Assembly (NCBI GenBank): GCA_905479295.1 | Contig: CAJQLY010000017.1 | Span: forward strand, 12,380 to 76,379 | DNA: 64,000 nucleotides | Source: an uncultured Gammaproteobacteria bacterium | GTDB taxonomy: Bacteria; Pseudomonadota; Gammaproteobacteria; UBA4575 | Direction: 5' to 3' | In this document: one piece after another, positions 191-19,590 of the stretch | How the letters are laid out: every line of letters begins with the position of its first letter | Numbering within the stretch: position 1 is the first letter of the stretch | Program-made: the position numbers and the translations under genes | Notes under the pieces: model-generated | What the model was told of the DNA's origin: nothing | Databases searched by the model: none | The model's input: the letters and a program-made list of their open reading frames with translations, nothing else

Positions 191-1990
191 ATGATCAGTA
201 GAACACAGGCTCGCGTTAGCGAACCGCATAAAAAACGAACAGATTGGGCTAATTTACGTCGATTATTCCCCTATTTATGGGCTTATCGAGGACGTATTCT
301 GCTCGCATTGGCCTGTTTAATGCTGGCTAAGGTGGCAACGGTTGCTGTGCCGTTAGTATTGAAGCAGATTGTGGATCAGTTTGATGTTGAAGATGTCATG
401 CTCACGTTGCCTTTGGCCTTATTGCTGGCATACGGTGCTCTGCGCTTATCGACGGCCCTATTTAACGAATTGCGTGATGTCTTGTTTGCCCGAGCCCGCT
501 TTCATGCGGTGCGCACGATGTCGGCAGACGTTTTGGCCCATTTGCATAGGTTGTCCATGCGGTTTCATCTGGATCGTCGCACTGGGTCGATCTCGAGAGA
601 TTTAGAACGGGGCACTCAAAGTCTCAGTTCTTTATCCAACTACTTCATCTTTATTGTGATTCCAACGGTATTTGAGATCACTTTAGTCATGGCTATTCTG
701 TTTAGCTCCTATGCCGCCCACTTTGCTGTGATCACGCTAGCTACCGTGATGTTCTACATATTATTTACGGCATTGGTGACGAACTGGCGTATGCACTATC
801 GGCATACAGCGAATCAACTGGATTCAGAAGCTCATTCTCAGGCGGTTGATAGCCTGATGAATTATGAGACAGTGAAATACTTCAATAATGAGGAGTATGA
901 GGTCAACCGTTATGCCAATACCCTGTTTCGTTGGGAGCAGGCCTTAGTTAAAAGTACCGTAACCATGTCTTTGCTGAATTTTGGTCAAGCATCGATTATT
1001 GCTATTGGTGTGACACTTATTATGGTGTTTGCAGCGAATGGTGTGGTTAGTGGTGAGATGACGATTGGTGACCTTGTCTTGGTGAATGCTTTGATGTTGC
1101 AACTATTTGTACCGATGAATATGTTGGGCATCGTGTATCGGCAGATTACCTATGCCCTGGCTGATATGGATTTGTTGACGAAATTATTAAATGAAAAGCC
1201 AGAGGTGAAGGATCAGGAGGGTGCGCAGGCGCTTCAGCTAAAGCAGGGTGCAGTGGAATTTGAACGTGTAGCTTTTTCCTATAACCCAGATCGAGTGATC
1301 TTACGTGATATTTCTATGCGTATAGCGCCAGGACAGAAGATTGCTGTTGTTGGCCCATCAGGTGCCGGTAAGTCGACGATTGCACGTTTATTGTTTCGTT
1401 TTTATGAGCCGACAAGTGGGCGAGTGCTGGTGGATGGTCAAGATATCGCCGAATCGACCCAAGACAGTCTGCGCCAACAGATCGGTATGGTGCCGCAGGA
1501 GACGGTACTGTTTAACAACAGTATTCATTTTAATATTGAATATGCCAGGCCAGGAGCAACTGAAGCAGAGATTCAAGCTGCGATACAGATTGCACAACTT
1601 GATCAACTGATTGCTCAGTTACCAGAGGGAATGAATACCATCGTTGGTGAGCGAGGACTGAAGCTGTCTGGCGGTGAACTACAGCGGGTGGCTATCGCAC
1701 GTGCGATCCTGAAAAAACCAAAAATCCTTATCTTTGATGAGGCTACATCCAGTTTAGATTCTGATACAGAGGTTGCACTGATGCAGTCTATACGTGAGGC
1801 CGCTAGTGGTGTCACATCACTGATTATTGCCCATCGCCTATCGACTATTGTTGATGCGGATTGTATCTATGTTTTAGAAGCTGGGCGTGTGGTGGAGCAA
1901 GGCAGTCATGCGCAACTATTGGCTATGGCTGGGTTATACTCGCGGTTATGGAATTTGCAGCAATCGAAACAAAGGCATAAGGAAGGCTAA
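191..1990 (+). CDS. ABC exporter, fused permease-ATPase (ATM1/HMT1-like)
   Basis: 599-aa ORF. N-terminal multi-helix membrane domain and C-terminal NBD with Walker A GPSGAGKST, signature LSGGELQR and Walker B ILIFDEATS. Confidence 0.9.
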   Translation: MISRTQARVSEPHKKRTDWANLRRLFPYLWAYRGRILLALACLMLAKVATVAVPLVLKQIVDQFDVEDVMLTLPLALLLAYGALRLSTALFNELRDVLFARARFHAVRTMSADVLAHLHRLSMRFHLDRRTGSISRDLERGTQSLSSLSNYFIFIVIPTVFEITLVMAILFSSYAAHFAVITLATVMFYILFTALVTNWRMHYRHTANQLDSEAHSQAVDSLMNYETVKYFNNEEYEVNRYANTLFRWEQALVKSTVTMSLLNFGQASIIAIGVTLIMVFAANGVVSGEMTIGDLVLVNALMLQLFVPMNMLGIVYRQITYALADMDLLTKLLNEKPEVKDQEGAQALQLKQGAVEFERVAFSYNPDRVILRDISMRIAPGQKIAVVGPSGAGKSTIARLLFRFYEPTSGRVLVDGQDIAESTQDSLRQQIGMVPQETVLFNNSIHFNIEYARPGATEAEIQAAIQIAQLDQLIAQLPEGMNTIVGERGLKLSGGELQRVAIARAILKKPKILIFDEATSSLDSDTEVALMQSIREAASGVTSLIIAHRLSTIVDADCIYVLEAGRVVEQGSHAQLLAMAGLYSRLWNLQQSKQRHKEG

Positions 1991-2355
1991 TGGCAACTGA
2001 AGATACTCAAAGAATTAAGATAGAAGAAGAACTGACGGATATGGATGGTAGCGGCTGTGCGAGCAGTGAGCCGTTTGCCTTGCGTGTGCTTGGCGATAGT
2101 ATGGAGCCAGAATTTAAAGATGGCTGCGTTATTATTATTGATCCTGATGGGGTTGCTGAGAATGGAAATTATGTGATTGCAGAGATCGATGGTGATTATA
2201 TTTTCCGCCAATATATGGAAGAGGCAAGTCAGGGATTTTTACAGGCAATTAATCCTGGGTATCCGCGGCAAGATATAGAGAGTAAGAGTGTTATTCGAGG
2301 TGTGGTTACGCAGCGTGCAGGTGCACGGCGTAAGTATCATAAGCGCTATGAATAA
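1990..2355 (+). CDS. stand-alone S24 (LexA/UmuD-like) peptidase domain protein without a DNA-binding domain
   Basis: 121-aa ORF with the LGDSMEP nucleophile motif. The C-terminal part aligns by eye to the LexA C-domain. Its ATG overlaps the TAA of the ABC gene (TAATG). Confidence 0.75.
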   Translation: MATEDTQRIKIEEELTDMDGSGCASSEPFALRVLGDSMEPEFKDGCVIIIDPDGVAENGNYVIAEIDGDYIFRQYMEEASQGFLQAINPGYPRQDIESKSVIRGVVTQRAGARRKYHKRYE

Positions 2356-3807: not shown

Positions 3808-4620
3808 TTATATGCGTTGCTTGTCCTTGTAAGGTAGTAGTATGCGGAAGCACGTGCCTTCGCCCAGAGTGCTATTGACTTCAATTTTTCCAGAATGATT
3901 GTTCACTACATTGTCGACCATATGTAACCCTAACCCAGTACCTTTACCTTTTTCCTTTGTTGTGTAGAAAGGCTCGAAGATGAAGGGTAAATCTTTTTCT
4001 GCTATGCCATGACCATTGTCGCTAATTTCAATAATGGCTATCTTCTGATCGTCCTCTTGTTTCATACGAGTACTTAAAGTGATTAGGCCATCCTGTCTAA
4101 TTGAGTGGACAGCATTCATTAACAAGCTTAGGAATGCTTGGCCTAATCGTCCTTCGCTGGAATAGATTAAATCTAATTCATTTAAGTCCCATTGTATGGT
4201 GGTTTGAAATTTGATTTCATTAAAGGCTAGTTTGACGGTTTTTTGAAGTAGCTTGTTGACATCGACTAGCTGCCAATCGATATCTTTGGCATGGGTGAAA
4301 CTCATGAGATCGGTAACGATGTTGCGAATCCGATTAGCCCCGAGTAAGCAGTCCTCTAATAGACTAGCTGTTTCTTTTTGTATGTAGTCGAAATCAACCT
4401 CTTTTTTCATGCGTTCTAAGCGTTGAATAAGGATAATCCTCTCCTGCTCACTAGGCCTGTGTGGAGAAGTAATTTCTTCTTGCAAGCTAAGGATTTCAAT
4501 ACAGTGTTTACGGTAATCGGCAAGCATTTCAAGGTTGCTAGTGAGGAAGCCAACTGGATTATTTATCTCATGGTTGGAGAGGTTGGCTAGGATGTATAAT
4601 TTGAGACAAAAAAAAGCCAC
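3808..4620 (-). CDS. histidine kinase transmitter core only (HisKA + HATPase_c), no sensor or TM region; possibly a 5'-truncated remnant
   Basis: H-box SNHEINNPVGF sits at residue ~17. G1 (DNGHGI) and G2 (GTGLGL) boxes are present. The only start upstream of the phospho-His is GTG 4618-4620, inside the terminator stem of the upstream gene. No response regulator is adjacent. Confidence 0.6.
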   Translation of the reverse strand: MAFFCLKLYILANLSNHEINNPVGFLTSNLEMLADYRKHCIEILSLQEEITSPHRPSEQERIILIQRLERMKKEVDFDYIQKETASLLEDCLLGANRIRNIVTDLMSFTHAKDIDWQLVDVNKLLQKTVKLAFNEIKFQTTIQWDLNELDLIYSSEGRLGQAFLSLLMNAVHSIRQDGLITLSTRMKQEDDQKIAIIEISDNGHGIAEKDLPFIFEPFYTTKEKGKGTGLGLHMVDNVVNNHSGKIEVNSTLGEGTCFRILLPYKDKQRI

Positions 4621-4634
4621 GTTTTTAACGCGGC
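4608..4634 (-). terminator. intrinsic terminator after the 67-aa ORF
   Basis: The minus-strand RNA reads GCCGCG-UUAAAAA-CGUGGC followed by U8. The stem is 6 bp including one G-U pair. Confidence 0.6.
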
Positions 4635-4666
4635 CTTTTAAATAACTAATTTACTGCTCAGGGTAA

Positions 4667-4870
4667 CTATTCGTGAGAACCCTTTTCCGCGTGGGCATCA
4701 GCAATCACTTCTGTCGCGAGTTTTGAATACTCTTCGCGATAGCCATCAAGCTCTGAACCGTCTTCTGGGGTGAAGTACTCTTCTGCTGAAACGCCGTTCG
4801 CACGGTCTAACTCGCTGAATTTCTTCTGCATTTCCAGCATTCTTTTGATCTTATCCTGCTTAGAGCTCAT
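4667..4870 (-). CDS. hypothetical acidic 67-aa protein
   Basis: ORF with GGAGGA immediately upstream of the ATG and a terminator directly downstream. I recognise no family. Confidence 0.5.
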   Translation of the reverse strand: MSSKQDKIKRMLEMQKKFSELDRANGVSAEEYFTPEDGSELDGYREEYSKLATEVIADAHAEKGSHE

Positions 4871-5041
4871 ATATCCTCCGAACGAAAAGCTTTGGTGTTT
4901 AATTTGCGTATCTTGGGCCGAAGTCTAGGAGATCGGCGCGGACACTTCTGTATCTCTATTGAGAGGCTGCGGGCAGCAATAGTCTTGATTCCTTCCACTG
5001 TTGCTGCGTGATGGTTAGCCTGCTGGGTGTCCTACTCGGGC

Positions 5042-5383
5042 CTAGTAACCGCCTTTACGACGACTTTCTGGTAATCCACCGATACGACCACCCTGCTTGC
5101 TAGGGTCGCCCGGGAATAGGTCATATAAGGTTTTTGCATTAACACTTTTGTCATCCCAGGCTTTGCTCATGGCCTTCACCATATTGCGGGTGTTGGGCTG
5201 ATTGCCTGCATTGTTGATGAATTCATCACGTAAGAAGTTAATTACATCCCAGTGACGATCAGTTAATTCTACGGTTTCTTCCTTGGCAATAATTAGTGCC
5301 AATTCTTTCGACCACTCTTCAATATTGACTAAAAAGCCACTGGCTGTGGTTTCTATGCTTTTTCCATCTATTTCAAATGCCAT
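5042..5383 (-). CDS. DsrC/TusE-family paralogue lacking both conserved C-terminal cysteines
   Basis: 113 aa, aligning along its whole length with the canonical DsrC at 11320-11652 (HW[DE]VINFLR[DE].., LY[DE]LFP). The C-terminal arm reads SKQGGRIGGLPESRRKGGY instead of AKQACKYAGLPKPTGCV. AGGAGA RBS. Confidence 0.85.
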   Translation of the reverse strand: MAFEIDGKSIETTASGFLVNIEEWSKELALIIAKEETVELTDRHWDVINFLRDEFINNAGNQPNTRNMVKAMSKAWDDKSVNAKTLYDLFPGDPSKQGGRIGGLPESRRKGGY

Positions 5384-5517
5384 AACAGTATCTCCTGAAC
5401 TCCAAATGTATGAAAAAAATCGCTTGCTGGAAGCTCGCTGAGCTTAACGCACTCTGCTAATTTCACTCAAGTTCTGTGATCAATATATCCTGAGTAAAGC
5501 GACTCTTATAAAGGAAG

Positions 5518-6207
5518 CTATTTTTCCTGTGCCTCACTGATCGCGTCAATACCCTTATGAGGTAGAAACAAACCACAACCGAGTAATCGCCCGAGACCGA
5601 TACCGCGTTGCTGTAATAATACGGATTGTGCAACATCAATGCCGTCTATCATGAGGCTGCGCGTCACAGCAGGCTGGCCATTGAGTATTAATTGGGTAAT
5701 CTTTCCACACATCATCTTTTTTGGCCGTATGCTAAGCAGCTGTAGCTCTTTTAGGGCTTGTTGTAGAAAGGCATCCTCATCCTCTACCGGGCCTAAATCA
5801 ACATAGCGGCAAAATAAAGTGGTTAAGCGTGATAGTGGTCTAACGCTTGATTTCCCAAACTCTAAAGTGACACCATCGACTTCGATATGATCACCCTGTA
5901 AGGCTTCAGTTGTTGCCAGTCTTTGATTGCTGATACGAAGCGTAAAAAGAGTGCGTCGTGAAGGATAGATGAGATCATCCGGATTTTGTGGGCGTATCCA
6001 ACCATTGCCTGATTCAGCACCATGAATAGAAAAAATACCACTGTATGGGTCTGTTACTAACCACGGTAGTTTGTCGCACATAGCCTGTGATAGGGCGTCG
6101 ATATGGTCTAGCTTGAGTTGCGCACACTTAATCCTGAAGTTGACATCGATAATGTCTTCGGGGACTTTATATTCCGCTTCTTCGTTCGTGTCCTCATTCC
6201 AATACAT
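5518..6207 (-). CDS. Cas6/Cmx6-like RAMP-superfamily protein (orphan; no CRISPR context)
   Basis: 229 aa. The C-terminal glycine-rich loop RGIGLGRLLGCGLFLPHKG matches the RAMP/Cas6 G-loop pattern. The N-terminus MYWNED..VPEDIIDVNFRI and the length match my recollection of the type I-MYXAN Cas6/Cmx6 family. Not verified by HMM. Confidence 0.55.
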   Translation of the reverse strand: MYWNEDTNEEAEYKVPEDIIDVNFRIKCAQLKLDHIDALSQAMCDKLPWLVTDPYSGIFSIHGAESGNGWIRPQNPDDLIYPSRRTLFTLRISNQRLATTEALQGDHIEVDGVTLEFGKSSVRPLSRLTTLFCRYVDLGPVEDEDAFLQQALKELQLLSIRPKKMMCGKITQLILNGQPAVTRSLMIDGIDVAQSVLLQQRGIGLGRLLGCGLFLPHKGIDAISEAQEK

Positions 6208-6243: not shown

Positions 6244-6435
6244 TTAGGAGCGAGCGGAAGTGAAGACGGCTTCTAATTCATCTTCCCAGTTTTCCGGGGT
6301 ATCTTTAAAGGGTGGGCGTACGTCCATCTGAAAAAACATCTCACCAGCGACAGCACGCTTAATAATTGCACTTTTTAGTTCATCGAAAGACTGCATGCTG
6401 AATTCTTCGATTAATATGTCGCTTAGTGCGAGCAT
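6244..6435 (-). CDS. hypothetical 63-aa acidic protein
   Basis: The track ORF was trimmed to the internal ATG (MLALSDILIEEF...). This start lies 4 nt after the TAG of the upstream dioxygenase. The longer version overlaps that gene by 86 nt. Confidence 0.45.
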   Translation of the reverse strand: MLALSDILIEEFSMQSFDELKSAIIKRAVAGEMFFQMDVRPPFKDTPENWEDELEAVFTSARS

Positions 6436-6439: not shown

Positions 6440-7318
6440 CTACTCCTCTGAAAATAAGCGATTATGGGAGCGCACACGATACAGCAGTCGCTGTTGCTGC
6501 GGAATACTACCGTTAGTAAAGGCACTGCGGGAATGCAAGATGTTGTTGCATATCAGGCCTTCACCTGGCTTGAGGCGATAGTCTAAGACAGCTTCACTCT
6601 GTTCAAGCTGTGCGTTAATTTGCTTTACGGCCGCTGCAACGCGGCTGCAAGCCTTCCACTGAATGCTGCGGCTGCGTGCGGTATAGCGCATATTCAGACT
6701 GCCATCATTGGGGTTGTTGAAAAATACAGGCCCACTTTGCACCGGTCTAAGTTCAACGCCATTCTCAATGTTAGCTGGAATCGTCATGCTATCTGTGGCC
6801 ATTAAAGCGTGGCAGAGCTCGGGGTCTTCGTCGTATAACGAGATATAGAGCAACTCATGATTCAGTAGGCGATTACTGCCACCTTCGGCAGCGGCTTGAG
6901 CGCAATGTAAAAGAAAAGAACGGATCTCATGTCCCGGTGGATTGTAATAACCATCGGTATGCCAATTTAAGCGTTGGTCTGAATAGGGGATATAACCTTT
7001 TGTGCGCCCCATAGGCATGACTTGTAGTGTGCTGATACTGTCTTCATCTGCACACAAATTTTGATCTAGCTTGTGCATACCAATTTGTTCGCAAAAACGT
7101 TGTATAATAGTGCGATCAACGGGTTCTGTTTGATTGAACCGATAGATCGCCATATTGTTTTCTGCGACCTGTTTGGTCAACTGTAGGTGCTCGCCCTCGG
7201 TTAGTAGTGAGGGGTTTTGAATGACGATAGCGGGTTCCGTTTTTAGACGAGACCAAGCTGCAAGTTTATGTGCTCGCCATTCTGGGTAATGCTCGAGGTG
7301 ATTGAGCTGAGACTGCAT
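6440..7318 (-). CDS. TauD/TfdA-family Fe(II)/2-oxoglutarate dioxygenase
   Basis: 292 aa. HxD facial-triad motif in LNWHTDGYY, distal His in NNILHSRSAF, and a length typical of the family. Confidence 0.75.
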   Translation of the reverse strand: MQSQLNHLEHYPEWRAHKLAAWSRLKTEPAIVIQNPSLLTEGEHLQLTKQVAENNMAIYRFNQTEPVDRTIIQRFCEQIGMHKLDQNLCADEDSISTLQVMPMGRTKGYIPYSDQRLNWHTDGYYNPPGHEIRSFLLHCAQAAAEGGSNRLLNHELLYISLYDEDPELCHALMATDSMTIPANIENGVELRPVQSGPVFFNNPNDGSLNMRYTARSRSIQWKACSRVAAAVKQINAQLEQSEAVLDYRLKPGEGLICNNILHSRSAFTNGSIPQQQRLLYRVRSHNRLFSEE

Positions 7319-7631
7319 AGAAATCCTGTAGAGTACGGCGCTAGTTGAGACGAAAAATGATTCTAATTACGGTTTATACTCTAAGTTACTGATTTAAAGA
7401 AATAAAAAATGACTCATAAAGTGACGTTTTAGGCCATTTCTGGTCATACAGAGTTGTTTGTTGGCGCCGCGTATATCCCAGTTGAGATAAGGCCCCTACA
7501 GCACCGCACCCCATAGGTAAGGTTTCGATGTTAGGGGGCGCTAACTAGACTCTACGGCATACAACTGGGTTCAAAACTCAGTGCGCTAATGCGTGGAAAT
7601 TAATTCTATTAGGAACGAGGAGAAATACAAA

Positions 7632-8900
7632 ATGGCTAACCAGCATCATGACACTCCAATGCTTGATGAGTTGGAAAATGGGCCTTGGCCTAGCTTCATT
7701 TCTGGCATCAAACGTCTGCGAGACCAGCACTCTGATGAGCGCATCAACGGTATGGCAAACGACTTGCTGGGGCAGCTAGAGCACTCATACGAGACTCGTA
7801 AAGGTTACTGGAAAGGCGGCACCGTCAGTGTCTTCGGATATGGCTCAGGTATTATTCCTCGCTTCTCAGAAGTTGGCAGCTCGTTCCCAGAATCAAAAGA
7901 ATTCCACACACTACGTGTGCAGCCTCCAGCAGGTAACTACTACACTACTGACATGCTACGTCAGCTTGGCGATAGCTGGGAGAAATGGGGTTCAGGTCTC
8001 GTTACTTTCCACGGTCAGACAGGCAACATCATGTTTATCGGTACTACTACTGATAACACTCAGCACTTCTTTGATGAAGTGAACGAATACGGTTGGGACC
8101 TTGGTGGTGCCGGTCCTTGTGTTCGTACCGGTATGTCTTGTGTTGGTGCAGCACGCTGTGAGATGTCTAACATCGACGAAATGCGCATTCACCGCACACT
8201 ACTAAATAACTTTACTGATGACGTTCACCGTCCAGCACTACCTTATAAGTTCAAGTTTAAGGTGTCTGGTTGTGGTAACGATTGCATGAACTCTATTGAG
8301 CGTTCTGATTTTGCGATCATCGGTACTTGGCGCGACAACATGAAAGTCGACCAAGACGAAGTGAAAGCATTCGTTGAAAAGAAAGGCCGTGAATACGTTA
8401 TTGATAACGTAGTAACACGTTGCCCAACGAAAGCATTGTCACTAAAAGATGACAACACTATGGAAGTCGACAACCGTAACTGTGTACGTTGCATGCATTG
8501 CATGAATGTCATGGTTAAGGCGCTTGGCCCAGGTGAAGATAAAGGCGCAACTATCCTAATCGGTGGTAAGCGTACGCTGAAGATTGGTGACTTGATGGGA
8601 ACAGTTGTTGTTCCATTCATGAAGCTTGAATCAGATGAAGATTACGAAAAGCTAACTGAAATGGCTGAAGAGACTATCGACTTCTGGGCTGAGAATGGCC
8701 TAGAGCACGAGCGTTGTGGTGAGATGATCGAGCGTATCGGTCTGGTTAACTTCCTCGAAGGTGTCGGTATTGAAGTTGATCCAAACATGGTCAACGATCC
8801 TCGCCAAAGTTCATACGTGCGTATGGATGATTGGGATCAGGAAGCTGAGAAATGGTTTAACCGTAAAGCTGAAGAAAAAGCAGCTGCTGCTGCAGGTTAG
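7632..8900 (+). CDS. dsrA: dissimilatory sulfite reductase alpha subunit (oxidative type)
   Basis: Start set at ATG 7632, preceded by GAGGAG. Siroheme/[4Fe-4S] Cys motifs CVGAARC and CGNDC, plus a ferredoxin-like insert CPTKAL..CVRCMHC. Followed by dsrB and dsrEFHC. Confidence 0.95.
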   Translation: MANQHHDTPMLDELENGPWPSFISGIKRLRDQHSDERINGMANDLLGQLEHSYETRKGYWKGGTVSVFGYGSGIIPRFSEVGSSFPESKEFHTLRVQPPAGNYYTTDMLRQLGDSWEKWGSGLVTFHGQTGNIMFIGTTTDNTQHFFDEVNEYGWDLGGAGPCVRTGMSCVGAARCEMSNIDEMRIHRTLLNNFTDDVHRPALPYKFKFKVSGCGNDCMNSIERSDFAIIGTWRDNMKVDQDEVKAFVEKKGREYVIDNVVTRCPTKALSLKDDNTMEVDNRNCVRCMHCMNVMVKALGPGEDKGATILIGGKRTLKIGDLMGTVVVPFMKLESDEDYEKLTEMAEETIDFWAENGLEHERCGEMIERIGLVNFLEGVGIEVDPNMVNDPRQSSYVRMDDWDQEAEKWFNRKAEEKAAAAAG

Positions 8901-9039
8901 TCCTAAGCAGTTATCAATAAGTTAAGAGATTAGGTTCGGATAACGAGTCAGTGTAAAGGTAGCCTTTATCGGTTGCCTTATTACTCTAACCAAACCTAAC
9001 CATAAAGATTATTACCCTGAAACTCGGGAGAGATTAATA

Positions 9040-10113
9040 ATGGCATTAGATCTAAGACCACCAATTGAATCAGGCTGTCCAGACGGCTTCCAATACATGC
9101 ATCCAGTGATGCGTAAGAACTATGGCAACTGGGACTACCATGAGCATCCACGTCCAGGTGTATTACTACACGTGGCCAAAGGTGGTGAACAAATTTGGAC
9201 AGTACGTGCAGGTACACAGCGTATTCTTGATGTTTTCACTCTGCGTAAGCTGTGTGACATCGGTGACAAATTTGCTGATGGCTATGTGCGTTTTACTATT
9301 CGCTCAAACATTGAGTACATGATTTCTGAGGAATCTAAAGTACAAGCATTAATCGACGCACTAGAAGCTGAAGGCTTTGTTGTCGGTGGTACTAAGAACT
9401 CAGTAGCTATGATTTCTCACACCCAGGGTTGGTTGCACTGTGATATTCCAGGCACTGACGCATCAGGTGTTGTGAAGGCAATGATGGATGAGTTGATTGA
9501 CGAGTTCCGTGAAAACAACATGCCTAACCGTGTGCACATCACGACTTCTTGCTGCCAGATTAACTGTGGTGGTCAAGGTGATATCGCGATTAACGTTCAA
9601 CATACTAAGCCACCAAAGATTAACCATGACTTAGTTTCAAATGTTTGTGAGCGCCCATCAGTGGTAGCTCGTTGCCCAGTGGCAGCGATTCGCCCAGCTC
9701 AAGTTAATGGCAAGCCATCGTTAGAAGTTGATGAGAAGAAATGTATCTGTTGTGGTGCTTGTTTCCCACCTTGTCCTCCAATGCAAATTAACGATGCTGA
9801 ACATAGTAAGTTAGCTGTATGGGTTGGTGGTAATCACTCTAATGCACGTGGCAAGCCTACTTTCCAGAAATTAGTTGCTGCTGGTATTCCAAATAACCCA
9901 CCACGTTGGCCTGAAGCGACAGCGATTGTTAAGCGTATCCTTGCTGCATATAAAGAAGATGCACGCGATTGGGAACGTATTAACGATTGGATTGAGCGCG
10001 TTGGTTGGCCTCGTTTCTTCGAGCTAACGGGTCTTCCGTTCACTAAGTTCCACATTGATAACTGGAAAGGTGCTCGTCGTAGCTTGAACTCTTCGACTCA
10101 TATTCGCTTCTAA
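9040..10113 (+). CDS. dsrB: dissimilatory sulfite reductase beta subunit
   Basis: 357 aa. Motifs TTSCCQINCGG, CPVAAI and CICCGACFPPCP. Position is directly after dsrA. Confidence 0.95.
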   Translation: MALDLRPPIESGCPDGFQYMHPVMRKNYGNWDYHEHPRPGVLLHVAKGGEQIWTVRAGTQRILDVFTLRKLCDIGDKFADGYVRFTIRSNIEYMISEESKVQALIDALEAEGFVVGGTKNSVAMISHTQGWLHCDIPGTDASGVVKAMMDELIDEFRENNMPNRVHITTSCCQINCGGQGDIAINVQHTKPPKINHDLVSNVCERPSVVARCPVAAIRPAQVNGKPSLEVDEKKCICCGACFPPCPPMQINDAEHSKLAVWVGGNHSNARGKPTFQKLVAAGIPNNPPRWPEATAIVKRILAAYKEDARDWERINDWIERVGWPRFFELTGLPFTKFHIDNWKGARRSLNSSTHIRF

Positions 10114-10127
10114 GAAAAGGGTTTATT

Positions 10128-10520
10128 GTGAAATATGGAATTTTAGTTAACGAGGGTCCGTACACGCATCAAGCGTCAGACTCTGCGTTAGCCTTCACTA
10201 AAGCAGCACTAGAGAAGGGGCACGAGATCTTTCGTGTCTTCTTCTACCACGATGGCGTGAATAACGGCACTAGCCTTGCTATTCCACCACAAGACGATCG
10301 TCACATTCCAAACCAATGGTCGGAATTAGCGAAAGAGTACAATATTGATCTTGTACTCTGTGTTGCGGCAGCACAACGCCGTGGGTTGTTGGATGAAAGT
10401 GAAGCTAAGCGTAATTCAAAAGCTGCAAGTAACATGATTGAGGGTTTCCGAATTTCAGGTTTGGGCCAGCTCATCGAAGCAGGTATCCAAGGCGATCGTA
10501 TGGTCGTTTTTGGCGATTAG
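10128..10520 (+). CDS. dsrE: sulfurtransferase DsrE
   Basis: 130 aa, GTG start. DsrE/TusD family with the conserved Cys in DLVLCVAAA. First gene of the dsrEFH triplet. Confidence 0.9.
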   Translation: MKYGILVNEGPYTHQASDSALAFTKAALEKGHEIFRVFFYHDGVNNGTSLAIPPQDDRHIPNQWSELAKEYNIDLVLCVAAAQRRGLLDESEAKRNSKAASNMIEGFRISGLGQLIEAGIQGDRMVVFGD

Positions 10521-10533
10521 GCCGGAGGATTAA

Positions 10534-10953
10534 ATGGAAGACGGTGATCAGGTAATTAAAAAATTCATGTATATGAACCGTAAGGCTCCTTACGGCACTA
10601 TATATGCGTGGGAATCACTGGAGGTCGTGCTGATTGCTGCGGCTTTCGATCAGGATATTAGTTTGGTATTCGCTGATGATGGTGTTTATCAGTTAATGAA
10701 AGATCAAAATACTGAAGAAGTAGGGATGAAGAATTTTTCTAAAACCTATTCAGCATTAGGTGATTACGATATTAAGAAAATTTATATTGAGCAAGAGTCA
10801 TTAGAAGAACGTGGCTTGAGTTTGGAAGATCTTCAAGGCCTAAAATATGAAGACGAAGATGATGACTGGGCAGAAAAGGATTCTATTATCTTAGTTTCTC
10901 GCGCAGAACTTGCAAAAGTCATTGACGAACAAGATGTCGTCTTTAGTTTCTAG
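10534..10953 (+). CDS. dsrF: DsrF
   Basis: 139 aa. KKFMYMNRKAPYGTIYAWE..FDQD is typical of DsrF/TusC. GGAGGA RBS. Confidence 0.9.
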   Translation: MEDGDQVIKKFMYMNRKAPYGTIYAWESLEVVLIAAAFDQDISLVFADDGVYQLMKDQNTEEVGMKNFSKTYSALGDYDIKKIYIEQESLEERGLSLEDLQGLKYEDEDDDWAEKDSIILVSRAELAKVIDEQDVVFSF

Positions 10954-10964
10954 GGGATTTTAAG

Positions 10965-11273
10965 ATGTCTATGCTACATACAGTAAACAAGAGCCCATTC
11001 GAGCGAAATACTCTCGAGTCTTGCATTAGCCTTGCAGTACCAGGAAGCGCTATCCTTCTTATCGAAGATGGTGTGATCGGAGCAATGGCGAATACTAAGC
11101 ATTCAGAGATGGTCAAAGCGGCAATGGCAAATGTAAAGATTTACGTACTCGGCCCAGATTTAAAAGCGCGTGGGTTGAATGAAGGTAATGTCGTTGATGG
11201 AATTAGCGTAGTTGGTTACGGCGAATTTGTCGATCTAACTACAGAACACTCGGCAGTGCAATCTTGGCTATAA
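10965..11273 (+). CDS. dsrH: DsrH
   Basis: 102 aa. DsrH/TusB family with the conserved Cys in LESCISLA. Confidence 0.9.
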   Translation: MSMLHTVNKSPFERNTLESCISLAVPGSAILLIEDGVIGAMANTKHSEMVKAAMANVKIYVLGPDLKARGLNEGNVVDGISVVGYGEFVDLTTEHSAVQSWL

Positions 11274-11319
11274 ATAGCTGATTTATAGCACTTACAATTC
11301 AATATAGGAGAGAACGAAA

Positions 11320-11652
11320 ATGGCAATTGAAGTAGACGGCCAAAGTTACGAAACTGACGAAGAAGGTTACCTAGAAGACTTAAACCAGTGGCGCCCAGAA
11401 TTGGGTAGCGCAATGGCTTTAGCTGACGGTGCACCTCTTGATGAAAACCACTGGGAAGTTATTAATTTCCTACGTGAGTACTACGAAGAATACCAAATTG
11501 CACCAGCAGTTCGTGTGCTAACTAAAGCTATCGGTAAGAAGCTCGGTAAAGATAAGGGTACAAGTAAGTATCTTTATGAGTTATTCCCTTACGGTCCTGC
11601 AAAGCAGGCTTGTAAGTATGCGGGTCTACCAAAGCCAACTGGCTGCGTATAA
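11320..11652 (+). CDS. dsrC: DsrC, canonical
   Basis: 110 aa. The C-terminal arm QACKYAGLPKPTGCV carries both conserved cysteines. Confidence 0.95.
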   Translation: MAIEVDGQSYETDEEGYLEDLNQWRPELGSAMALADGAPLDENHWEVINFLREYYEEYQIAPAVRVLTKAIGKKLGKDKGTSKYLYELFPYGPAKQACKYAGLPKPTGCV

Positions 11653-11723
11653 GTCCGTCTTAATTATCGGGTGGGTAAAAGCCCATCCGATATTATTTGA
11701 TAGATATAAAAAATATTCTAAAT

Positions 11724-12446
11724 ATGTCGATATTATTTGCTGTTTTATTCTACTTCGCGACTGCAGTTCTAGTCCTTGGAGTGGGATCACGCATTCGAAA
11801 ATACGCGAAAACTCCCGCGCCTCTAAAAATTCCAACAACGCCTGCGCCAACTACGCGCCGTGGTGTTGTGTTCCGTATGATTAAAGAGCTGACTATCTTT
11901 GAAAGCTTGTTTAAATCAAACAAGTGGATCTGGCTATTCGGCTGGCTTTTCCATATGGGCATGTTATTAGTGCTATTACGTCATCTACGCTACTTCACAG
12001 ACCCAGTATGGTCTTGGGTAGTGTTTATTCAGCCGTTTGGCAAATATGCATCGATAGCGATGCTACTAGGCTTAATCGGCCTCTTGGTCCGACGTATTGT
12101 CGTTGACCGTGTGCGATACATCTCTGCACCCTCTGATTTTTTAATGTTGGGACTGTTATTAGTGATTGGTGGAACTGGCGCAATGATGAGTTTTGTCACC
12201 AGTGCTGACATTATCTCACTAAAGTCTTACCTACTTGGCCTGATGGTGTTCGATATTCGCTACCTGCCAAGCGATCCAATTTTGTTGGTGCATCTGGCCT
12301 CAGTTGCTATTTTAATGATCATTTTCCCTATTTCTAAGTTGCTACATGCGCCGGGTATATTCTTTAGCCCAACACGAAACCAAGTGGATAATCCACGTGA
12401 ACGTCGCCATGTTGCTGCATGGGCCATTAAGTTAGAACAGAAATAA
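11724..12446 (+). CDS. dsrM: DsrM, NarI/HdrE-like membrane cytochrome b subunit
   Basis: Hydrophobic multi-helix ORF between dsrC and dsrK. ATG 11724 is preferred over the TTG at 11697 given in the track. Confidence 0.85.
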   Translation: MSILFAVLFYFATAVLVLGVGSRIRKYAKTPAPLKIPTTPAPTTRRGVVFRMIKELTIFESLFKSNKWIWLFGWLFHMGMLLVLLRHLRYFTDPVWSWVVFIQPFGKYASIAMLLGLIGLLVRRIVVDRVRYISAPSDFLMLGLLLVIGGTGAMMSFVTSADIISLKSYLLGLMVFDIRYLPSDPILLVHLASVAILMIIFPISKLLHAPGIFFSPTRNQVDNPRERRHVAAWAIKLEQK

Positions 12447-12462
12447 GAGCAAGGAGCAGATA

Positions 12463-14010
12463 ATGGCCAAAGTTGATTATGAAATTCCAGAGCTAAAAGA
12501 ATACCCAGTTATTCCTAAGCTAAAGAAAGATGCGATGGCGCATAGTGCTCCATATGTTGCTAAGGAAAAATTTCAAACCTCATTAGGTTATGCCGGTGAG
12601 CTAGTCGACAACTGGCAAGAAGTGGCCATCGCTAAGATGGGTGAGTTAACGACTAAGTATCGTTCACTCTCAGTATTCCTTGATTCGTGCGTGAAGTGTG
12701 GCGCTTGTACTGATAAGTGTCATTATTATCTTGGTACGACAGACCCTAAAAACATGCCGGTCGCGCGACAAGATTTATTCCGTAATGTTTACCGTCGTTA
12801 CTTCACGTTAGCCGGTAAGTTAGTACCTAAATTAGTTGGTGCACAAGACTTAACAGAAGAAGTGCTAGATGACTGGTATACCTACTTTCATCAGTGTTCT
12901 CAATGTCGTCGTTGTTCTGTTTACTGCCCTTATGGTATTGATACTGCAGAGATATCAATGGCCGCACGAGAAGTAATGGCGACCGTAGGTAAAGGACAAA
13001 AGTACTGTAACGAAATTATCGGTAAGGCACAGACATTAGGTAATAATTTAGGTCTGCCTGAGCCAGCACTAGCTGACACATTAGAAGGCTTGGAAGAAGA
13101 CGTCGAAGAAGATACCGGCGTTGCTGTTAAATTCCCACTAGATAAAAAAGGCTGTGATGTCTTACTGATCACACCATCGGCTGACTTTTTTGCAGAACCA
13201 CACGTTGATGGTTTAATCGGTTACGCCAAAGTCTTTCATGAGGCAGGTGTCTCATGGACTATGAGTTCTTACGCAAGTGAAGCAGCCAACTTTGGTATGT
13301 TCATTGGTAGTTACGAAAACATGCGTAAATTAGCTTTACGTATTCGTGAGGCAGCTATCGAGCTTGGTTGTAAGCGTATTGTATTTGGTGAATGTGGTCA
13401 TGCATGGCGTGTGGCTTATAGTTTCTTGAATACCTTAGCTGGCCCATTTGATTTCTTAGATCCAGCCTATCCAGTGCCACAGCATATTTGTGAGTTCACT
13501 CACGACTTGATCAGTAAAGACAAGCTTAAGTTTGATAAGTCAGAAAATGATCATATGACACTGACCTTCCATGATTCTTGTAACGTCGCACGTGCTTCAC
13601 GCATGGGTGATGAGGCCGGTGGTCAGTTCACGTTGCCACGCGATATTATCAACGCGACATGCAATAACTTCTATGACATGCCAAAGCATGCCATTAAAGA
13701 AGGAACTTACTGCTGTGGCGGTGGTGGTGGCTTGCTCACTGACGACTTGATGGAATTACGAGTTAAAGGCGCACTTCCACGTATGGAAGCATTAAAGAAT
13801 GTCACTGAGAATAACGGCGTGACACACATGGCAGCGATCTGTGCGATCTGTAAGAGTCAGTTTAGTAAAGTGCTACCGTATTACGGTTTTGAAATGGATC
13901 AGATTGTCAGCGTGCACCAATTGGTCAGCAACGCGATTATCTTAACCAAAGATGAAGATAGTGTAATTGATAATGAAGCTGAAACTGATGACACGGTAGT
14001 AGCAGCGTAA
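12463..14010 (+). CDS. dsrK: DsrK, HdrD-like catalytic Fe-S subunit
   Basis: 515 aa. Motifs CVKCGACTDKCH and CSQCRRCSVYCP, plus a CCG-type motif (YCCGGGGG). Confidence 0.92.
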   Translation: MAKVDYEIPELKEYPVIPKLKKDAMAHSAPYVAKEKFQTSLGYAGELVDNWQEVAIAKMGELTTKYRSLSVFLDSCVKCGACTDKCHYYLGTTDPKNMPVARQDLFRNVYRRYFTLAGKLVPKLVGAQDLTEEVLDDWYTYFHQCSQCRRCSVYCPYGIDTAEISMAAREVMATVGKGQKYCNEIIGKAQTLGNNLGLPEPALADTLEGLEEDVEEDTGVAVKFPLDKKGCDVLLITPSADFFAEPHVDGLIGYAKVFHEAGVSWTMSSYASEAANFGMFIGSYENMRKLALRIREAAIELGCKRIVFGECGHAWRVAYSFLNTLAGPFDFLDPAYPVPQHICEFTHDLISKDKLKFDKSENDHMTLTFHDSCNVARASRMGDEAGGQFTLPRDIINATCNNFYDMPKHAIKEGTYCCGGGGGLLTDDLMELRVKGALPRMEALKNVTENNGVTHMAAICAICKSQFSKVLPYYGFEMDQIVSVHQLVSNAIILTKDEDSVIDNEAETDDTVVAA

Positions 14011-14162
14011 TTAATTTGTACTAAGTATTTAATTTATAAGGGGCGCAAACGATAGCCGAGCAGAGTATACCGGGGACATTTGGGGAAATAATTCCCACCT
14101 GATCCGGGCTTGCGCTAACAAAGTGACCCAACTTATTTAAGAGTTTTAATAGGAGCATTATT

Positions 14163-16115
14163 ATGGCTACGTCTAAAGATGAAATGTCTTATAACTTAAC
14201 GTTTCGTAAGTACGAAGAAGGCGATCACACCTGGGGTAACTACGGAGATCAAATCTTCTCAGAAGATACCTCACACAAGTGTCCGACCTACGTACACCGT
14301 ACGCCACCCTGTCAGGGTAGTTGCCCGTCAGGCGAAGATATTCGTGGTTGGTTAGACATTATTCGTGGTATTGAAAACCCACCAACTGACATGTCTATGC
14401 AGGAATATGCATTCCGTCGTTCTACTGATGCTAATCCATTCCCATCAATGATGGGTCGTGTTTGCCCAGCACCTTGTCAAGAAGGTTGTAACCGTAACAA
14501 CGTCGAAGACTTTGTTGGTATTAATGCGGTTGAGCAATACATTGGTGACACAGCGAAGACTGAAAACTTCCAATTTGATGCTGCACCAGCACTATCTGGT
14601 AAGCGTATTGCGATCATCGGTGGTGGCCCAGCCGGTCTAGCTGCAGCATTCCAGCTTCGTAAGAAAGGCCATGCCAGCACCATCTTTGATGATCATGATG
14701 AGTTAGGCGGTATGTTCCGTTACGGCATTCCTGGTTACCGTACACCACGTGATGTGCTTGACCATGAAATTCAGCGAATCATTAACCTAGGTGATATTGA
14801 GACCCGTATGAATATACGTGTTGGTCGCGATGTATCTATGGAAGATGTCGAGAAAGAATTTGATGCAGTTATTTGGGCGCTAGGTTGCCAATCAGGTCGT
14901 AGCTTACCTGTGCCAAACGGTGACGCACCAAACTGTGTCTCTGGTGTTAAATTCCTAGAAGCCTTTAATAAAGGTCTGCTAAAAGTAGCCGCTGACCGTG
15001 TTGTTTGTGTTGGTGGTGGTGATACCTCAATTGACGTTGTATCTGTAGCACGTCGTTTAGGTAAAATTGATAAATTAGAAGCTGAGCAAGCGCCTGAGTT
15101 TGTTATCGGTGGATACGTAGCCCATGACGCAGCTTTTGCTGCTGCCCGTGAAGGTGCTGAAGTCACACTGACATCACTATTCCAACGCGCTGAAATGACA
15201 GCTGCTGAGTGGGAAGTTCATGAAGCAGTACACGAAGGTGTTCGTATCGATAACGGTGTTATGCCAGTTGAAGTTATCGTCAACGCTGAAGGCCGTGCAA
15301 CAGCATTACGTATGGCAAAATGTGAATTAGAAGGTGGTCGTCCAACACCAGTTGCCGGTACTGAATACGATATCGAATGTGATTTGATCGTATCAGCGAT
15401 TGGTCAGGGTGGTGATTTAGAAGGCCTAGAAGGTATGGATAATGGTCGTGGTCTAATCGACGCAGACAAGCATTACCAAGTACCAGAAAAAGAAGGTCAC
15501 TTCGTTTGTGGTGACATCATTCGTCCACACTTACTAACTACAGCGATTGGCCAAGCCTCTATCTGTGCAGATAGTGTTGACCATTACCTTGCTGAAAGTG
15601 AGATGGCTAAGCGTCCTAAAGTTGACGTCCATCACTTCAGCCTACTATCGAAATTACAAGAGACTGGTTTAGAGCCAGGTGATTACGAGAGTGGCGCACA
15701 TCACGGTACAGACGAAGCAGAATACTCAGTACACAACTATGAAGATCGTTCAGCGCAAGAAGTGATTGCATCAGATCGTTTGTACTTGGCGCACTTTGAT
15801 TACACACCACGCGGTCAACGCGACACAGAAGTGCCTGATTCAGAAACAGTACTAGGACACTTTGAAGAGCGTGTAATTGGCTTTAGTGAAGCAGAAGCTG
15901 TCGAAGAAGCAAAACGTTGCATGAGTTGTGGTATGTGTTTTGAGTGTGATAACTGTGTTATCTACTGCCCACAAGATGCTGTTTTCCGAGTTAGCAAAGA
16001 CAAGAAGACCACAGGTCGTTACGTTGATACTGACTACGCAAAATGTATTGGTTGCCACATTTGTGCTGATGTTTGCCCTACAGGCTACATTGATATGGCA
16101 CTAGGTGATCACTAA
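14163..16115 (+). CDS. dsrL: DsrL, GltD-like NAD(P)H oxidoreductase with a C-terminal ferredoxin domain
   Basis: 650 aa. Dinucleotide folds IIGGGPAGLAAA and VGGGDTSIDV. C-terminal CMSCGMCFECDNC..CP and CIGCHICADVCP. Confidence 0.92.
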   Translation: MATSKDEMSYNLTFRKYEEGDHTWGNYGDQIFSEDTSHKCPTYVHRTPPCQGSCPSGEDIRGWLDIIRGIENPPTDMSMQEYAFRRSTDANPFPSMMGRVCPAPCQEGCNRNNVEDFVGINAVEQYIGDTAKTENFQFDAAPALSGKRIAIIGGGPAGLAAAFQLRKKGHASTIFDDHDELGGMFRYGIPGYRTPRDVLDHEIQRIINLGDIETRMNIRVGRDVSMEDVEKEFDAVIWALGCQSGRSLPVPNGDAPNCVSGVKFLEAFNKGLLKVAADRVVCVGGGDTSIDVVSVARRLGKIDKLEAEQAPEFVIGGYVAHDAAFAAAREGAEVTLTSLFQRAEMTAAEWEVHEAVHEGVRIDNGVMPVEVIVNAEGRATALRMAKCELEGGRPTPVAGTEYDIECDLIVSAIGQGGDLEGLEGMDNGRGLIDADKHYQVPEKEGHFVCGDIIRPHLLTTAIGQASICADSVDHYLAESEMAKRPKVDVHHFSLLSKLQETGLEPGDYESGAHHGTDEAEYSVHNYEDRSAQEVIASDRLYLAHFDYTPRGQRDTEVPDSETVLGHFEERVIGFSEAEAVEEAKRCMSCGMCFECDNCVIYCPQDAVFRVSKDKKTTGRYVDTDYAKCIGCHICADVCPTGYIDMALGDH

Positions 16116-16160
16116 GCAATCCTGACGCTAGACGTACAGTAGTAGAAGTAAACGACTATT

Positions 16161-16652
16161 ATGGGAATACTCTTGTCAAAGTTAGCTGTAATTAAGCATA
16201 GCCTTGCCCTTATCCTGGTTTTAATCCTGGGTATGGGCTCGGTATATGCGGTTGATAAGCACGCCATCAATGTTCCAGCACCGAAAGGTGAAGAATGTGT
16301 TGAAGATGCAAAATGGATGCGTGTTAATCACTTTAAGACCGTATTAAATCATCGTGATGATACGGTTATACGTGGTATTCGTACGGAAAAGCATAGCTTA
16401 AAGAACTGCATCGACTGTCATATTACACCGAATAAAACAGGTGACTATGCGCGCTATTCTAATAGTGAAGAGCATTTTTGTGCGTCTTGTCATACCACTG
16501 CTGCGGTCTCTATTGACTGCTTTAGTTGTCATGCCGATCGTCCAGAGCATGTCATTCGTGCAGCACGTCAACAGAGTCAACTTGAAGCCCTCAAGAAAAA
16601 CTCAGTTCACGTTAGCGCAACCGAATTAATTCTCAACACACCACAGCCGTAA
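16161..16652 (+). CDS. dsrJ: DsrJ, triheme cytochrome c
   Basis: 163 aa. N-terminal signal/anchor and three CxxCH motifs (CIDCH, CASCH, CFSCH). Confidence 0.92.
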   Translation: MGILLSKLAVIKHSLALILVLILGMGSVYAVDKHAINVPAPKGEECVEDAKWMRVNHFKTVLNHRDDTVIRGIRTEKHSLKNCIDCHITPNKTGDYARYSNSEEHFCASCHTTAAVSIDCFSCHADRPEHVIRAARQQSQLEALKKNSVHVSATELILNTPQP

Positions 16653-17443
16653 TGAATGAGATGAATAAGAAGTACGCACTTCTGAGTAAGTCAGATGACA
16701 ACGCAAGCCAAGCTGTAGACCAAGGCAAGCGTACATTTATTGGTGGGCTTGTCGGTGCCAGTGGCCTCGCAGTTGCGCCAGGCGTTATGCTTTATCAAAC
16801 AGCCGCTGCAAAACCATTGGAACAAGCTGTTAGTAATGCAGTGCGTTGGGGCATGCTAGTTAACGTGAATCAATGTGCAGAAGATTGTGATGACTGTGTC
16901 ACCGCCTGTAATGATGAACATGGTTTATGGCCTGAAGAAGGTTCGACCACTGACTCGCAATGGATTCGTAAGTTAACAGTGAAAGATCCAAGCACAGGGA
17001 ATGCCAAGTCATTGCCAATGATGTGCCAACACTGTGAGAATCCACCCTGTGTTGATGTTTGCCCAACGGGTGCATCGTTTAAACGCGAAGACGGTATCGT
17101 ACTAGTTAACATGCACACCTGTATCGGTTGTCGTTATTGCATGATGGCCTGCCCATATAAGGCGCGTTCATTTGTTCACGAAACCTTAGAAAACCAATTG
17201 CCAGATTCGCCACGCGGTAAGGGCTGTGTCGAAAGCTGTAATATGTGTGTGAACAAGATTGATGCGGGTGATAACACCACCGCCTGTGCTGAAGCCTGTT
17301 CTAAAGCAGGTCATGAAGCCATCACCTTTGGTGATCTAAATGATCCAGAAAGTGATATTTCAACGCAACTTAAAGCCCATGGCGGTAACCAGATCCGTGC
17401 TGATCTTGGATTAAATACCGGCGTTCGCTACCAGGGACTATAA
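16652..17443 (+). CDS. dsrO: DsrO, periplasmic Fe-S (ferredoxin-like) subunit
   Basis: 263 aa. ATG overlaps the dsrJ stop (TAATG). Leader KRTFIGGLVGASGLAVAP. Motifs CQHCENPPCVDVCP and CIGCRYCMMACP. Confidence 0.9.
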   Translation: MNEMNKKYALLSKSDDNASQAVDQGKRTFIGGLVGASGLAVAPGVMLYQTAAAKPLEQAVSNAVRWGMLVNVNQCAEDCDDCVTACNDEHGLWPEEGSTTDSQWIRKLTVKDPSTGNAKSLPMMCQHCENPPCVDVCPTGASFKREDGIVLVNMHTCIGCRYCMMACPYKARSFVHETLENQLPDSPRGKGCVESCNMCVNKIDAGDNTTACAEACSKAGHEAITFGDLNDPESDISTQLKAHGGNQIRADLGLNTGVRYQGL

Positions 17444-17445
17444 GC

Positions 17446-18648: not shown

Positions 18649-18683
18649 GACTATCTGCATTACTTAAGACTTAAATCTTAGTC

Positions 18684-18724
18684 AAAAAAAGCGGGCCCTG
18701 ATTAATTCAGGGCCCGCTTTTTTT
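18684..18724 (+). terminator. intrinsic (bidirectional-looking) terminator of the dsrA-P operon
   Basis: A7, then GCGGGCCCTGA-TTAAT-TCAGGGCCCGC, then T7. The 11-bp stem is perfect. Confidence 0.85.
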
Positions 18725-18748
18725 ATACCTACGATTTAATGAATGATT

Positions 18749-18794
18749 TTATAGGCGGGTAATAATTTGCTGGGTGAACTCAATGGTGGATGCA
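18749..18794 (-). pseudogene. orphan duplicate of the 3' end of the icd-like gene
   Basis: Minus-strand translation gives ..SASTIEFTQQIITRL*, compared with ..SASTTEFTQQIIARL* at the real gene end (19659). No upstream coding continuation. Confidence 0.7.
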
Positions 18795-18795
18795 G

Positions 18796-18822: not shown

Positions 18823-18828
18823 CTCTAG

Positions 18829-19509: not shown

Positions 19510-19535
19510 GTGATCTCTATATGTAGTTGGTGGCA

Positions 19536-19562: not shown

Positions 19563-19590
19563 ATGGTCTCCAATACTGAAGTCTTGATCC

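Follow-up and report, generated by a model that had tools for sequence, protein, structure and literature searches.

We examined a 64,000-nucleotide stretch of DNA from an uncultured Gammaproteobacteria bacterium of the UBA4575 lineage (contig CAJQLY010000017.1, positions 12,380 to 76,379 of the forward strand), referred to here as the window, and in particular a gene at 5518–6207 on the minus strand. Its 229-residue product has a Cas6 fold and belongs to a dsr-linked 'NGW' subfamily of Pfam family PF09559 (Cas6/Cmx6). The gene lies in a minus-strand cluster, divergent from a reverse-dsr operon, that contains in order a TauD-like gene, a 63-residue open reading frame (ORF), the Cas6-like gene, a Cys-less DsrC paralogue, and a 67-residue ORF. 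The first cluster gene, at 6440–7318 (minus strand), encodes a 292-residue TauD/TfdA-family Fe(II)/2-oxoglutarate dioxygenase (PF02668, E = 4e-20) whose translation shows WHTDG and ILHSR motifs. Directly upstream of the Cas6-like gene, the small ORF at 6244–6435 (minus strand; MLALSD at its start) begins 4 nt past the TauD-like stop codon and is separated from the Cas6-like gene by 36 nt; it is putatively DUF6967-like, an assignment that draws on position and a weak motif alignment and is discussed below. On the other side, the DsrC-family paralogue at 5042–5383 (minus strand; PF04358, E = 4e-33) has 113 residues, none of them cysteine, and ends in RKGGY. The last gene, at 4667–4870 (minus strand), has no Pfam or other family match and is followed by a terminator-like hairpin at 4611–4639 (minus strand), in which a 13-pair stem precedes the T run TTTTTTTTT. 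The divergent operon, dsrABEFHCMKLJOP, occupies 7593–18648 on the plus strand, as assigned from its ORFs and from Pfam matches for DsrL, DsrO and DsrP, and its own DsrC at 11320–11652 retains both C-terminal cysteines, unlike the paralogue at 5042–5383. Because the gaps within the cluster are short and no terminators are predicted between the genes, the Cas6-like gene appears to be co-transcribed with the TauD-like, DUF6967-like and (usually) Cys-less DsrC genes.

The product of the Cas6-like gene is a Cas6-fold protein, with tandem RNA recognition motif (RRM) folds, of the Pfam Cas6/Cmx6 family. PF09559 ('Cas6 Crispr') matches the protein with E = 1e-48 and 166.3 bits (cut-off 26.7) across positions 1–190 of the 191 in the model, beginning at residue 20, and the PADLOC Cas6 models match it with E = 8e-52; the NCBIfam equivalog TIGR02807 ('type I-MYXAN Cas6/Cmx6') gives 96.5 bits, which is below its curated cut-off of 98.85. 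The sole convincing match of the family profile to a solved structure is 8fcj_B (E = 2.8e-19), the Cas6 of a type I-B Cascade from a CRISPR-associated transposon (CAST). An AlphaFold2 model made with 36 homologues as input (predicted local distance difference test score, pLDDT, 87; predicted template modelling score, pTM, 0.83) has a beta-alpha-beta, RRM-like arrangement in both halves, and when the model was searched against the PDB with Foldseek, all 40 matches with E < 1e-3 were to Cas6, Cas6e or Cse3 structures. The top match is 8fcj_B/8fcu_B (E = 1e-15), template modelling (TM) scores to solved Cas6 proteins are 0.73–0.79, and the sixth-ranked match is 3ufc, listed as a 'Cas6-related gene from P. 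furiosus' (E = 4.8e-8). The resemblance to Cas6 far exceeds chance. An earlier note on this DNA, made from the letters alone, had proposed from a size of about 230 residues that the protein comprises two RRM folds, and the model and its superposition on Cas6 uphold that proposal.

The same note had recognised a glycine-rich loop of the repeat-associated mysterious protein (RAMP) type at the C-terminus, and this identification is confirmed by alignment. The peptide that it quoted, RGIGLGRLLGCGLFLPHKG, corresponds to residues 201–219 (5551–5607, minus strand); residues 201–214 align to the loops of both 8fcj_B (QEQGIGGKRKMMCGIFVP) and E. coli CasE (GIGPAKSMGCGLL), and residues G202, G204, G210, C211 and G212 are invariant in our homologue alignment (A1). 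CasE is a Cas6e (Cse3) protein of type I-E systems, and the profile comparison with it aligns the loop only (LVQQGIGPAKSMGCGLL). The loop is also the only part of Cas6e recognisable by sequence, although the fold is matched by Foldseek with E-values of 1e-5 to 1e-4. CasE is a subunit of Cascade that stays on the CRISPR RNA (crRNA) hairpin after cutting, whereas Cascade is absent at the window locus.

The place of the gene beside dsrAB is widely conserved. A scan using one genome per species gave 67 loci with relatives of the Cas6-like protein at 36–92% identity, in uncultured Gammaproteobacteria or Thiotrichales, Halochromatium, and one Chromatiaceae genome, and the dsr families of the window operon were also called in related loci. 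Halochromatium carries the gene at L050 and L059, and complete genomes with a copy include OX638335.1, OZ245760.1, OY730298.1 and CP037918.1. Divergent dsrA is present within 4 kb in all 60 loci with enough upstream sequence, a TauD-like gene lies upstream in 58 of 63 assessable loci, and the small upstream ORF was found by tblastn in 62 of the 67. Of 66 assessable loci, 60 have a Cys-less DsrC paralogue after the Cas6-like gene, and a last small ORF of the 67-residue type is located downstream in 53 loci. Orthologues of the DsrC-like neighbour lack cysteine entirely in 60 of 64 instances, and all seven of the C-termini examined end in RKGGY, giving the flexible arm a conserved Gly-Gly-Tyr terminus. 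The Cas6-like homologues are steady in length at about 229 residues, and comparison with the relative at 92% identity gives 52 codon differences that are synonymous and 18 that are not, so that the gene is under purifying selection. Chromatiaceae-type loci (L050–L066; positions 9263–9985 in L057 and 9227–9943 in L069) carry an extra conserved gene for a protein of 238–242 residues, with no Pfam match, that has the small ORF on one side and the Cas6-like gene on the other, and in L072 and L074 an unrelated-looking 182-residue protein is encoded after the Cas6-like gene instead.

A profile search of 1.84 billion cluster representatives (50% identity) returned 1379 clusters with E < 1e-3 and 234 with E < 1e-30, and nearly all of the best 150 of these 234 have the NGW insertion described below. 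Genomic context was taken for seven divergent members (L068–L074), of which L071 and L072 are on contigs too short to assess and L070 is a short duplicate context. The remaining four (L068, L069, L073 and L074), which are on long contigs and include relatives at only 31–33% identity, all have the same divergent dsrAB arrangement. At the distant loci the small upstream gene matches PF22295 (DUF6967) with E = 3.6e-20. The 63-residue ORF of the window, searched alone, is below Pfam detection of DUF6967, and its alignment with the DUF6967 type is weak and spans an F..MD[LV]..T..W motif, from which homology is not established; its position together with this motif alignment nonetheless suggests that it is DUF6967-like. 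The 3' neighbour of the Cas6-like gene is variable, being DsrC-like, an unknown protein of 182 or 238–242 residues, or an S24 peptidase, and in one locus ThiF is encoded further downstream. The most constant core of the cluster is formed by the TauD-like, small-protein and Cas6-like genes. We conclude that the Cas6-like gene is a fixed accessory gene of the reverse-dsr locus in sulfur-oxidising Gammaproteobacteria.

There is no sign of a CRISPR-Cas system around the gene. Neither Tandem Repeats Finder (TRF) nor scans for spaced direct repeats and k-mers detected a CRISPR array in the 64-kb window, in agreement with the earlier note, which had reported none, and a search of the window with Rfam at gathering thresholds gave only a cobalamin riboswitch. 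Pfam searches with 51 window ORFs, including 43 of the 45 ORFs of at least 150 residues between 14 and 64 kb, found no Cas family besides the gene itself; the other ORFs are dsr and housekeeping genes, for example those for MetRS, RpoN, siroheme synthase and an Mrp-type ATPase. No cas genes are present among the called genes of the four fully annotated 20-kb loci (L068, L069, L073 and L074). We also saw no homologues in viral contigs or plasmid collections, and on that ground rejected a phage or plasmid origin of the Cas6-like gene.

In the 67 related loci, which total 1.17 Mb, screening with TRF, for spaced repeats and by k-mers brought up a single CRISPR array, in L031. The array has 22 repeats of 36 nt (16675–18099) and lies by cas2, cas1, and a fragment encoding the C-terminus of Cas9 (12846–20629), with an IS605 TnpB-like ORF at 12846–14111 nearby; some 6 kb separate the array from the Cas6-like gene. 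The array belongs to a type II system, and its closeness to the Cas6-like gene is coincidental. Type II (Cas9) systems work without Cas6, and the array is therefore irrelevant to the Cas6-like gene. In a second locus, L041, the TauD-like gene and the small ORF have between them a tandem repeat with a unit of 50 nt (3.6 copies, 93% matches; 9594–9772), which is not a CRISPR array.

An alternative explanation for these observations is that the protein is an ordinary Cas6 that serves a distant CRISPR-Cas system in trans, or a decaying remnant of a lost locus. Annotation pipelines do name its homologues 'type I-MYXAN CRISPR-associated protein Cas6/Cmx6', and the TIGR02807 score of 96.5 falls barely below the 98.85 cut-off. 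However, synteny of this kind would not persist for an ordinary Cas6 encoded in trans: the place beside dsrAB does not change over 36–92% identity, or as far down as about 31%, the homologues keep a length of about 229 residues under purifying selection, and no cas gene is found in the window or the four annotated 20-kb loci. The sequence signature is also unlike that of CRISPR-linked members, as detailed next, and we find this explanation barely credible.

To describe that signature, we aligned the dsr-linked proteins with Cmx6 proteins of cyanobacteria, relatives of the solved CAST Cas6; residue counts refer to 20 CRISPR-linked Cmx6 proteins and to 150 cluster representatives of the dsr-linked group (151 sequences). 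Profiles of the two groups align in hhalign with a probability of 99.8% and 23% identity, and relative to type I-B ('I-MYXAN') Cas6/Cmx6 proteins, 8fcj_B included, identity is about 20–23%. They share membership of PF09559 and the two-RRM fold, together with an Asp-(His/Asn) pair at the beta1-alpha1 junction, the GIHxI strand, R91, R134, and the glycine-rich loop with its cysteine (LQxxGIGxxRxxxCGxF). The dsr-type gene differs in its setting, being fixed by dsrAB with no array or cas genes in the window. The dsr-type protein differs in having an acidic N-terminal extension, a 9–11-residue NGW insertion, and SRRT, R183 and PHKGI motifs; the Tyr and His found in every CRISPR-linked Cmx6 protein compared are missing, its C-terminal beta-hairpin is 13 residues shorter, and it is acidic rather than basic. 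The extension comprises residues 1–18 (MYWNEDTNEEAEYKVPED; 6154–6207, minus strand), ahead of the Pfam Cas6 match, and 136 of the 151 sequences keep its W3. The insertion corresponds to residues 63–73 (GAESGNGWIRP; 5989–6021, minus strand), where Cmx6 and 8fcj_B have a gap; N68, G69 and W70 occur in 137, 150 and 149 of the 151 sequences respectively, and the pLDDT of the model is low at residues 65–68. The dsr-linked proteins have a median isoelectric point (pI) of 5.9 and a median net charge of -5, as against 9.25 and +5.5 for CRISPR-linked Cmx6. For the window protein the corresponding values are 5.16 and -7, and trimming both of its tails shifts the net charge from -7 to +1.

Column counts of the alignment at the beta1-alpha1 region (6055–6108, minus strand), which includes Asp34-His35, Asp37 and Val51 of the window protein, show that the two groups differ at two positions. 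CRISPR-linked Cmx6 proteins have Tyr at position 37 and His at position 51 in 20 of 20 sequences. The dsr-linked group has no fixed residue at position 37 (W 32, Y 30, H 21, Q 13, L 12, and some further residues), and none of its 150 cluster representatives has His at position 51. D34 and H35 are present in 129 and 136 of 151 dsr-linked sequences. Position 59, within the GIHxI strand, is His in 130 of 151 subfamily representatives and in 19 of 20 CRISPR-linked Cmx6 proteins; in the window protein and its closest relatives this residue (6031–6033, minus strand) is Phe. The dsr-linked subfamily has, as judged by alignment, lost this Tyr and this His, both invariant among the CRISPR-linked proteins. 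The spacing of this pair recalls that of Tyr31 and His46 in the Tyr31/His46/Lys52 triad of P. furiosus Cas6. The earlier note had left open whether a catalytic His/Tyr/Lys triad is retained; by alignment, a site of that type is not seen in the window protein, where Asp37 and Val51 replace the Tyr and His.

These differences bear on the proposal, made in the earlier note, that the protein is an active domesticated endoribonuclease that cuts a non-CRISPR RNA hairpin in a neighbouring transcript, for instance in processing of its own operon or of the dsr mRNA. Such an enzyme would account for the retention of the Cas6 fold and glycine-rich loop, the dsr operon, long and polycistronic, would make a plausible substrate for processing, and candidate histidines are available: the Asp34-His35 pair lies at the beta1-alpha1 junction, where several Cas6 enzymes carry their catalytic His, and wide conservation extends to H59 and H62. 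The Tyr and His invariant in Cmx6 are nevertheless gone, with Asp37, Val51 and Phe59 in the window protein, the protein is acidic, and its C-terminal hairpin is 13 residues shorter. There is also no conserved hairpin for it to act upon, either in the three regions proposed as targets or elsewhere in the cluster, as described below, and we consider cleavage of this kind very unlikely.

Three intergenic spacers (5384–5517, 4871–5041 and 7463–7542) had been described in the earlier note as structured and named as candidate targets in cis. Folding them in comparison with dinucleotide shuffles gave z = -0.78, -0.13 and -0.98 respectively, showing no excess stability, and the description does not hold. 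The spacer at 5384–5517, between the Cas6-like and DsrC-like genes, ranges from 13 to 406 nt across genomes, with an outlier of 1471 nt in L032, and shares no common hairpin with the other genomes. We therefore rejected all three as cis targets, given folding energies that match those of shuffles and a 5384–5517 spacer that is unrelated between genomes. For the dsrA leader (7319–7592) and divergent promoter region, an alignment of 54 loci is too divergent to back any common structure.

The 4871–5041 spacer does contain a conserved 24-nt motif, CAYCYC-N4-GRG-ATACAGAC/ATAGTGAC, at 4945–4968 (minus strand), upstream of the 67-residue ORF. Each locus has a single high-scoring copy, in about 50 genomes and without exception on the operon strand, and these copies stand well clear of the weaker position weight matrix matches elsewhere (scores of 14–22; 18 in 2 × 1.27 Mb). 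At first sight the motif resembles a covarying hairpin with an 8-nt tail, and it was considered as a Cas6 substrate. However, only 67.5% of cells in the dyad pair, about half of the 39 distinct sequences break three of the five pairs, and a single pair covaries. A TAnnnT box resembling a -10 element (4922–4927, minus strand) is positioned a constant 17 nt downstream of the motif, and this fixed distance fits a promoter with an operator, which the element probably provides for the last small ORF; it was rejected as a Cas6 substrate. With respect to the original proposal, then, a Cas6-family protein outside CRISPR-Cas stands and the label 'domesticated Cas6' is well supported, but action on a hairpin and the targets named for it are not supported.

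A further explanation is that the Cas6 fold has been reused without nucleic acid, as a protein- or ligand-binding subunit working with the TauD-like and DUF6967-like proteins; it could, for example, present a substrate or escort the DsrC-like protein in a step of sulfur oxidation or cofactor handling. The tightest and most widespread neighbours are indeed the TauD-like enzyme and the small protein (with gaps of 4 nt and 36 nt), and the 3' partner varies among DsrC-like proteins, unknown proteins and an S24 peptidase, with ThiF further downstream. The acidic character of the protein and its lack of the Cmx6-invariant Tyr and His are likewise consistent with such a role, as are new invariant residues including Cys28, the NGW loop and the PHKGI tail. 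On the other hand, the glycine-rich loop and the arginines of the RNA binders are strongly conserved, and it is difficult to account for this unless the protein has a phosphate-bearing ligand. It also counts against this explanation that we know of no precedent for a Cas6 fold in a role that does not involve nucleic acid, and we consider it unlikely.

The best overall explanation, to which we assign a probability of roughly 60%, is that the gene represents a dsr-linked, non-CRISPR subfamily of Cas6 that has been remodelled and has an inferred non-cleaving role. The protein would no longer cut RNA in the manner of Cas6, and its glycine-rich loop and arginines would still hold RNA or another phosphate-bearing ligand; it may act with the DUF6967-like and DsrC-like proteins in tuning dsr expression or assembly. 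In its specific form, that of a non-cleaving binder of RNA or a phosphate-bearing ligand that tunes the neighbouring dsr system, this is a tentative proposal drawn from sequence comparison, to which we give somewhat less than even odds. A binder that does not cut is plausible because a non-catalytic paralogue, 3ufc, is among the structural neighbours and offers a precedent; 3ufc reportedly binds RNA without cleaving it. Both proteins have a Cas6 fold without catalytic residues (by alignment for the window protein). They differ in that 3ufc comes from a CRISPR-bearing archaeon and recognises CRISPR repeats, whereas the window protein belongs to a bacterial subfamily at a metabolic locus. A more elaborate version is that an exapted Cas6 fold is part of a module of four to five genes, with the TauD-like, DUF6967-like and Cys-less DsrC proteins as its partners, controlling the reverse-dsr operon post-transcriptionally, possibly sensing oxygen, iron or 2-oxoglutarate by means of the dioxygenase; we see this as markedly unlikely.

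Several points weigh against a remodelled, non-cleaving Cas6 of this kind. The acidic charge and shortened hairpin oppose strong RNA binding of the classical sort, our search turned up no RNA partner, and the intergenic regions of the cluster have no conserved or unusually stable structure. The view that the lost Tyr and His were catalytic draws on their invariance in CRISPR-linked members and on the analogy with P. furiosus Cas6, and it is conceivable that an active site has been rebuilt from H35, H59 and H62, although the window protein has Phe59. The scans for CRISPR arrays and cas genes were confined to the 64-kb window and the 20-kb loci.

The company that the gene keeps can be compared with known dsr-associated proteins. 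The DsrC/TusE/RspA family includes RspA as a class of DsrC-family proteins without redox cysteines (PMC8477390). The neighbour at 5042–5383 is without the sulfur-carrying C-terminal Cys of DsrC and TusE and is in this respect RspA-like. None of DsrC, TusE and RspA has a Cas6 fold, nor do DsrR and DsrS of Allochromatium vinosum. In that organism, these accessory genes of the dsr locus reportedly act on dsr expression post-transcriptionally (Grimm, Dahl and colleagues). We saw no dsrR or dsrS after dsrP in the window. A CobB/CobQ-type amidotransferase gene, of the family that includes DsrN, is located at 22392–23759 (plus strand), and between it and dsrP are DJ-1, isocitrate/isopropylmalate dehydrogenase-family and MiaB-like radical SAM genes.

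Other parts of the window also have counterparts near related clusters. A block at 28564–37762 includes 2OG-FeII_Oxy_3, GNAT, a second 2OG-FeII_Oxy_3, DUF6866, two unknown ORFs and further genes, and also holds glycosyltransferase family 3, MoxR-type AAA and DUF2201 genes. In L068 and L069 this block comes directly after the Cas6 cluster and in the window it lies beyond the dsr operon, which suggests either rearrangement or a looser functional neighbourhood. Near the start of the window, a protein consisting of a stand-alone S24 (LexA-like) peptidase domain is encoded at 1990–2355 (plus strand) beside an ATP-binding cassette (ABC) exporter at 191–1990 (plus strand); in L071 the gene immediately after the Cas6-like one encodes an S24 peptidase, and an S24/exporter pair follows the small ORF in L024. 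The peptidase and exporter pair may be part of an extended neighbourhood. The cobalamin riboswitch noted above is at 40822–41064 (plus strand; 103 bits), upstream of genes for a TonB-dependent receptor (41127–43067) and a cobalamin adenosyltransferase (43079–43654).

The dsr-linked group is a large, distinct, widespread and unrecognised subfamily of Cas6/Cmx6 outside CRISPR-Cas. A full-text search of an incomplete library found no publication linking Cas6/Cmx6 to dsr, RspA, TauD or DUF6967, and the CRISPR classification literature that we examined makes no mention of a dsr-linked Cas6 lineage. Database labels of the form 'type I-MYXAN CRISPR-associated Cas6/Cmx6' cover hundreds of clusters from sulfur-oxidising bacteria, with carriers that include the scaly-foot snail symbiont (WP_043108406.1) and Sedimenticolaceae. 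Because the proteins so labelled are not CRISPR-associated, counts of CRISPR-Cas systems are inflated in sulfur-oxidising lineages.

Recruitment of CRISPR-Cas components to roles other than defence is known for whole effector modules and for relatives of Cas1, Cas9 and Cas12, and in the literature searched we came across no account of a Cas6 lineage that stands alone and is fixed in a metabolic locus. If the protein does operate within a module that controls the reverse-dsr operon, it would be the first exaptation of Cas6 into core energy metabolism. The reverse-dsr pathway drives sulfur oxidation in bacteria of oxygen-minimum zones and in chemosynthetic symbionts, and the uncharacterised and conserved set of genes directly beside dsrAB is an obvious target in the search for its missing regulatory or assembly steps.

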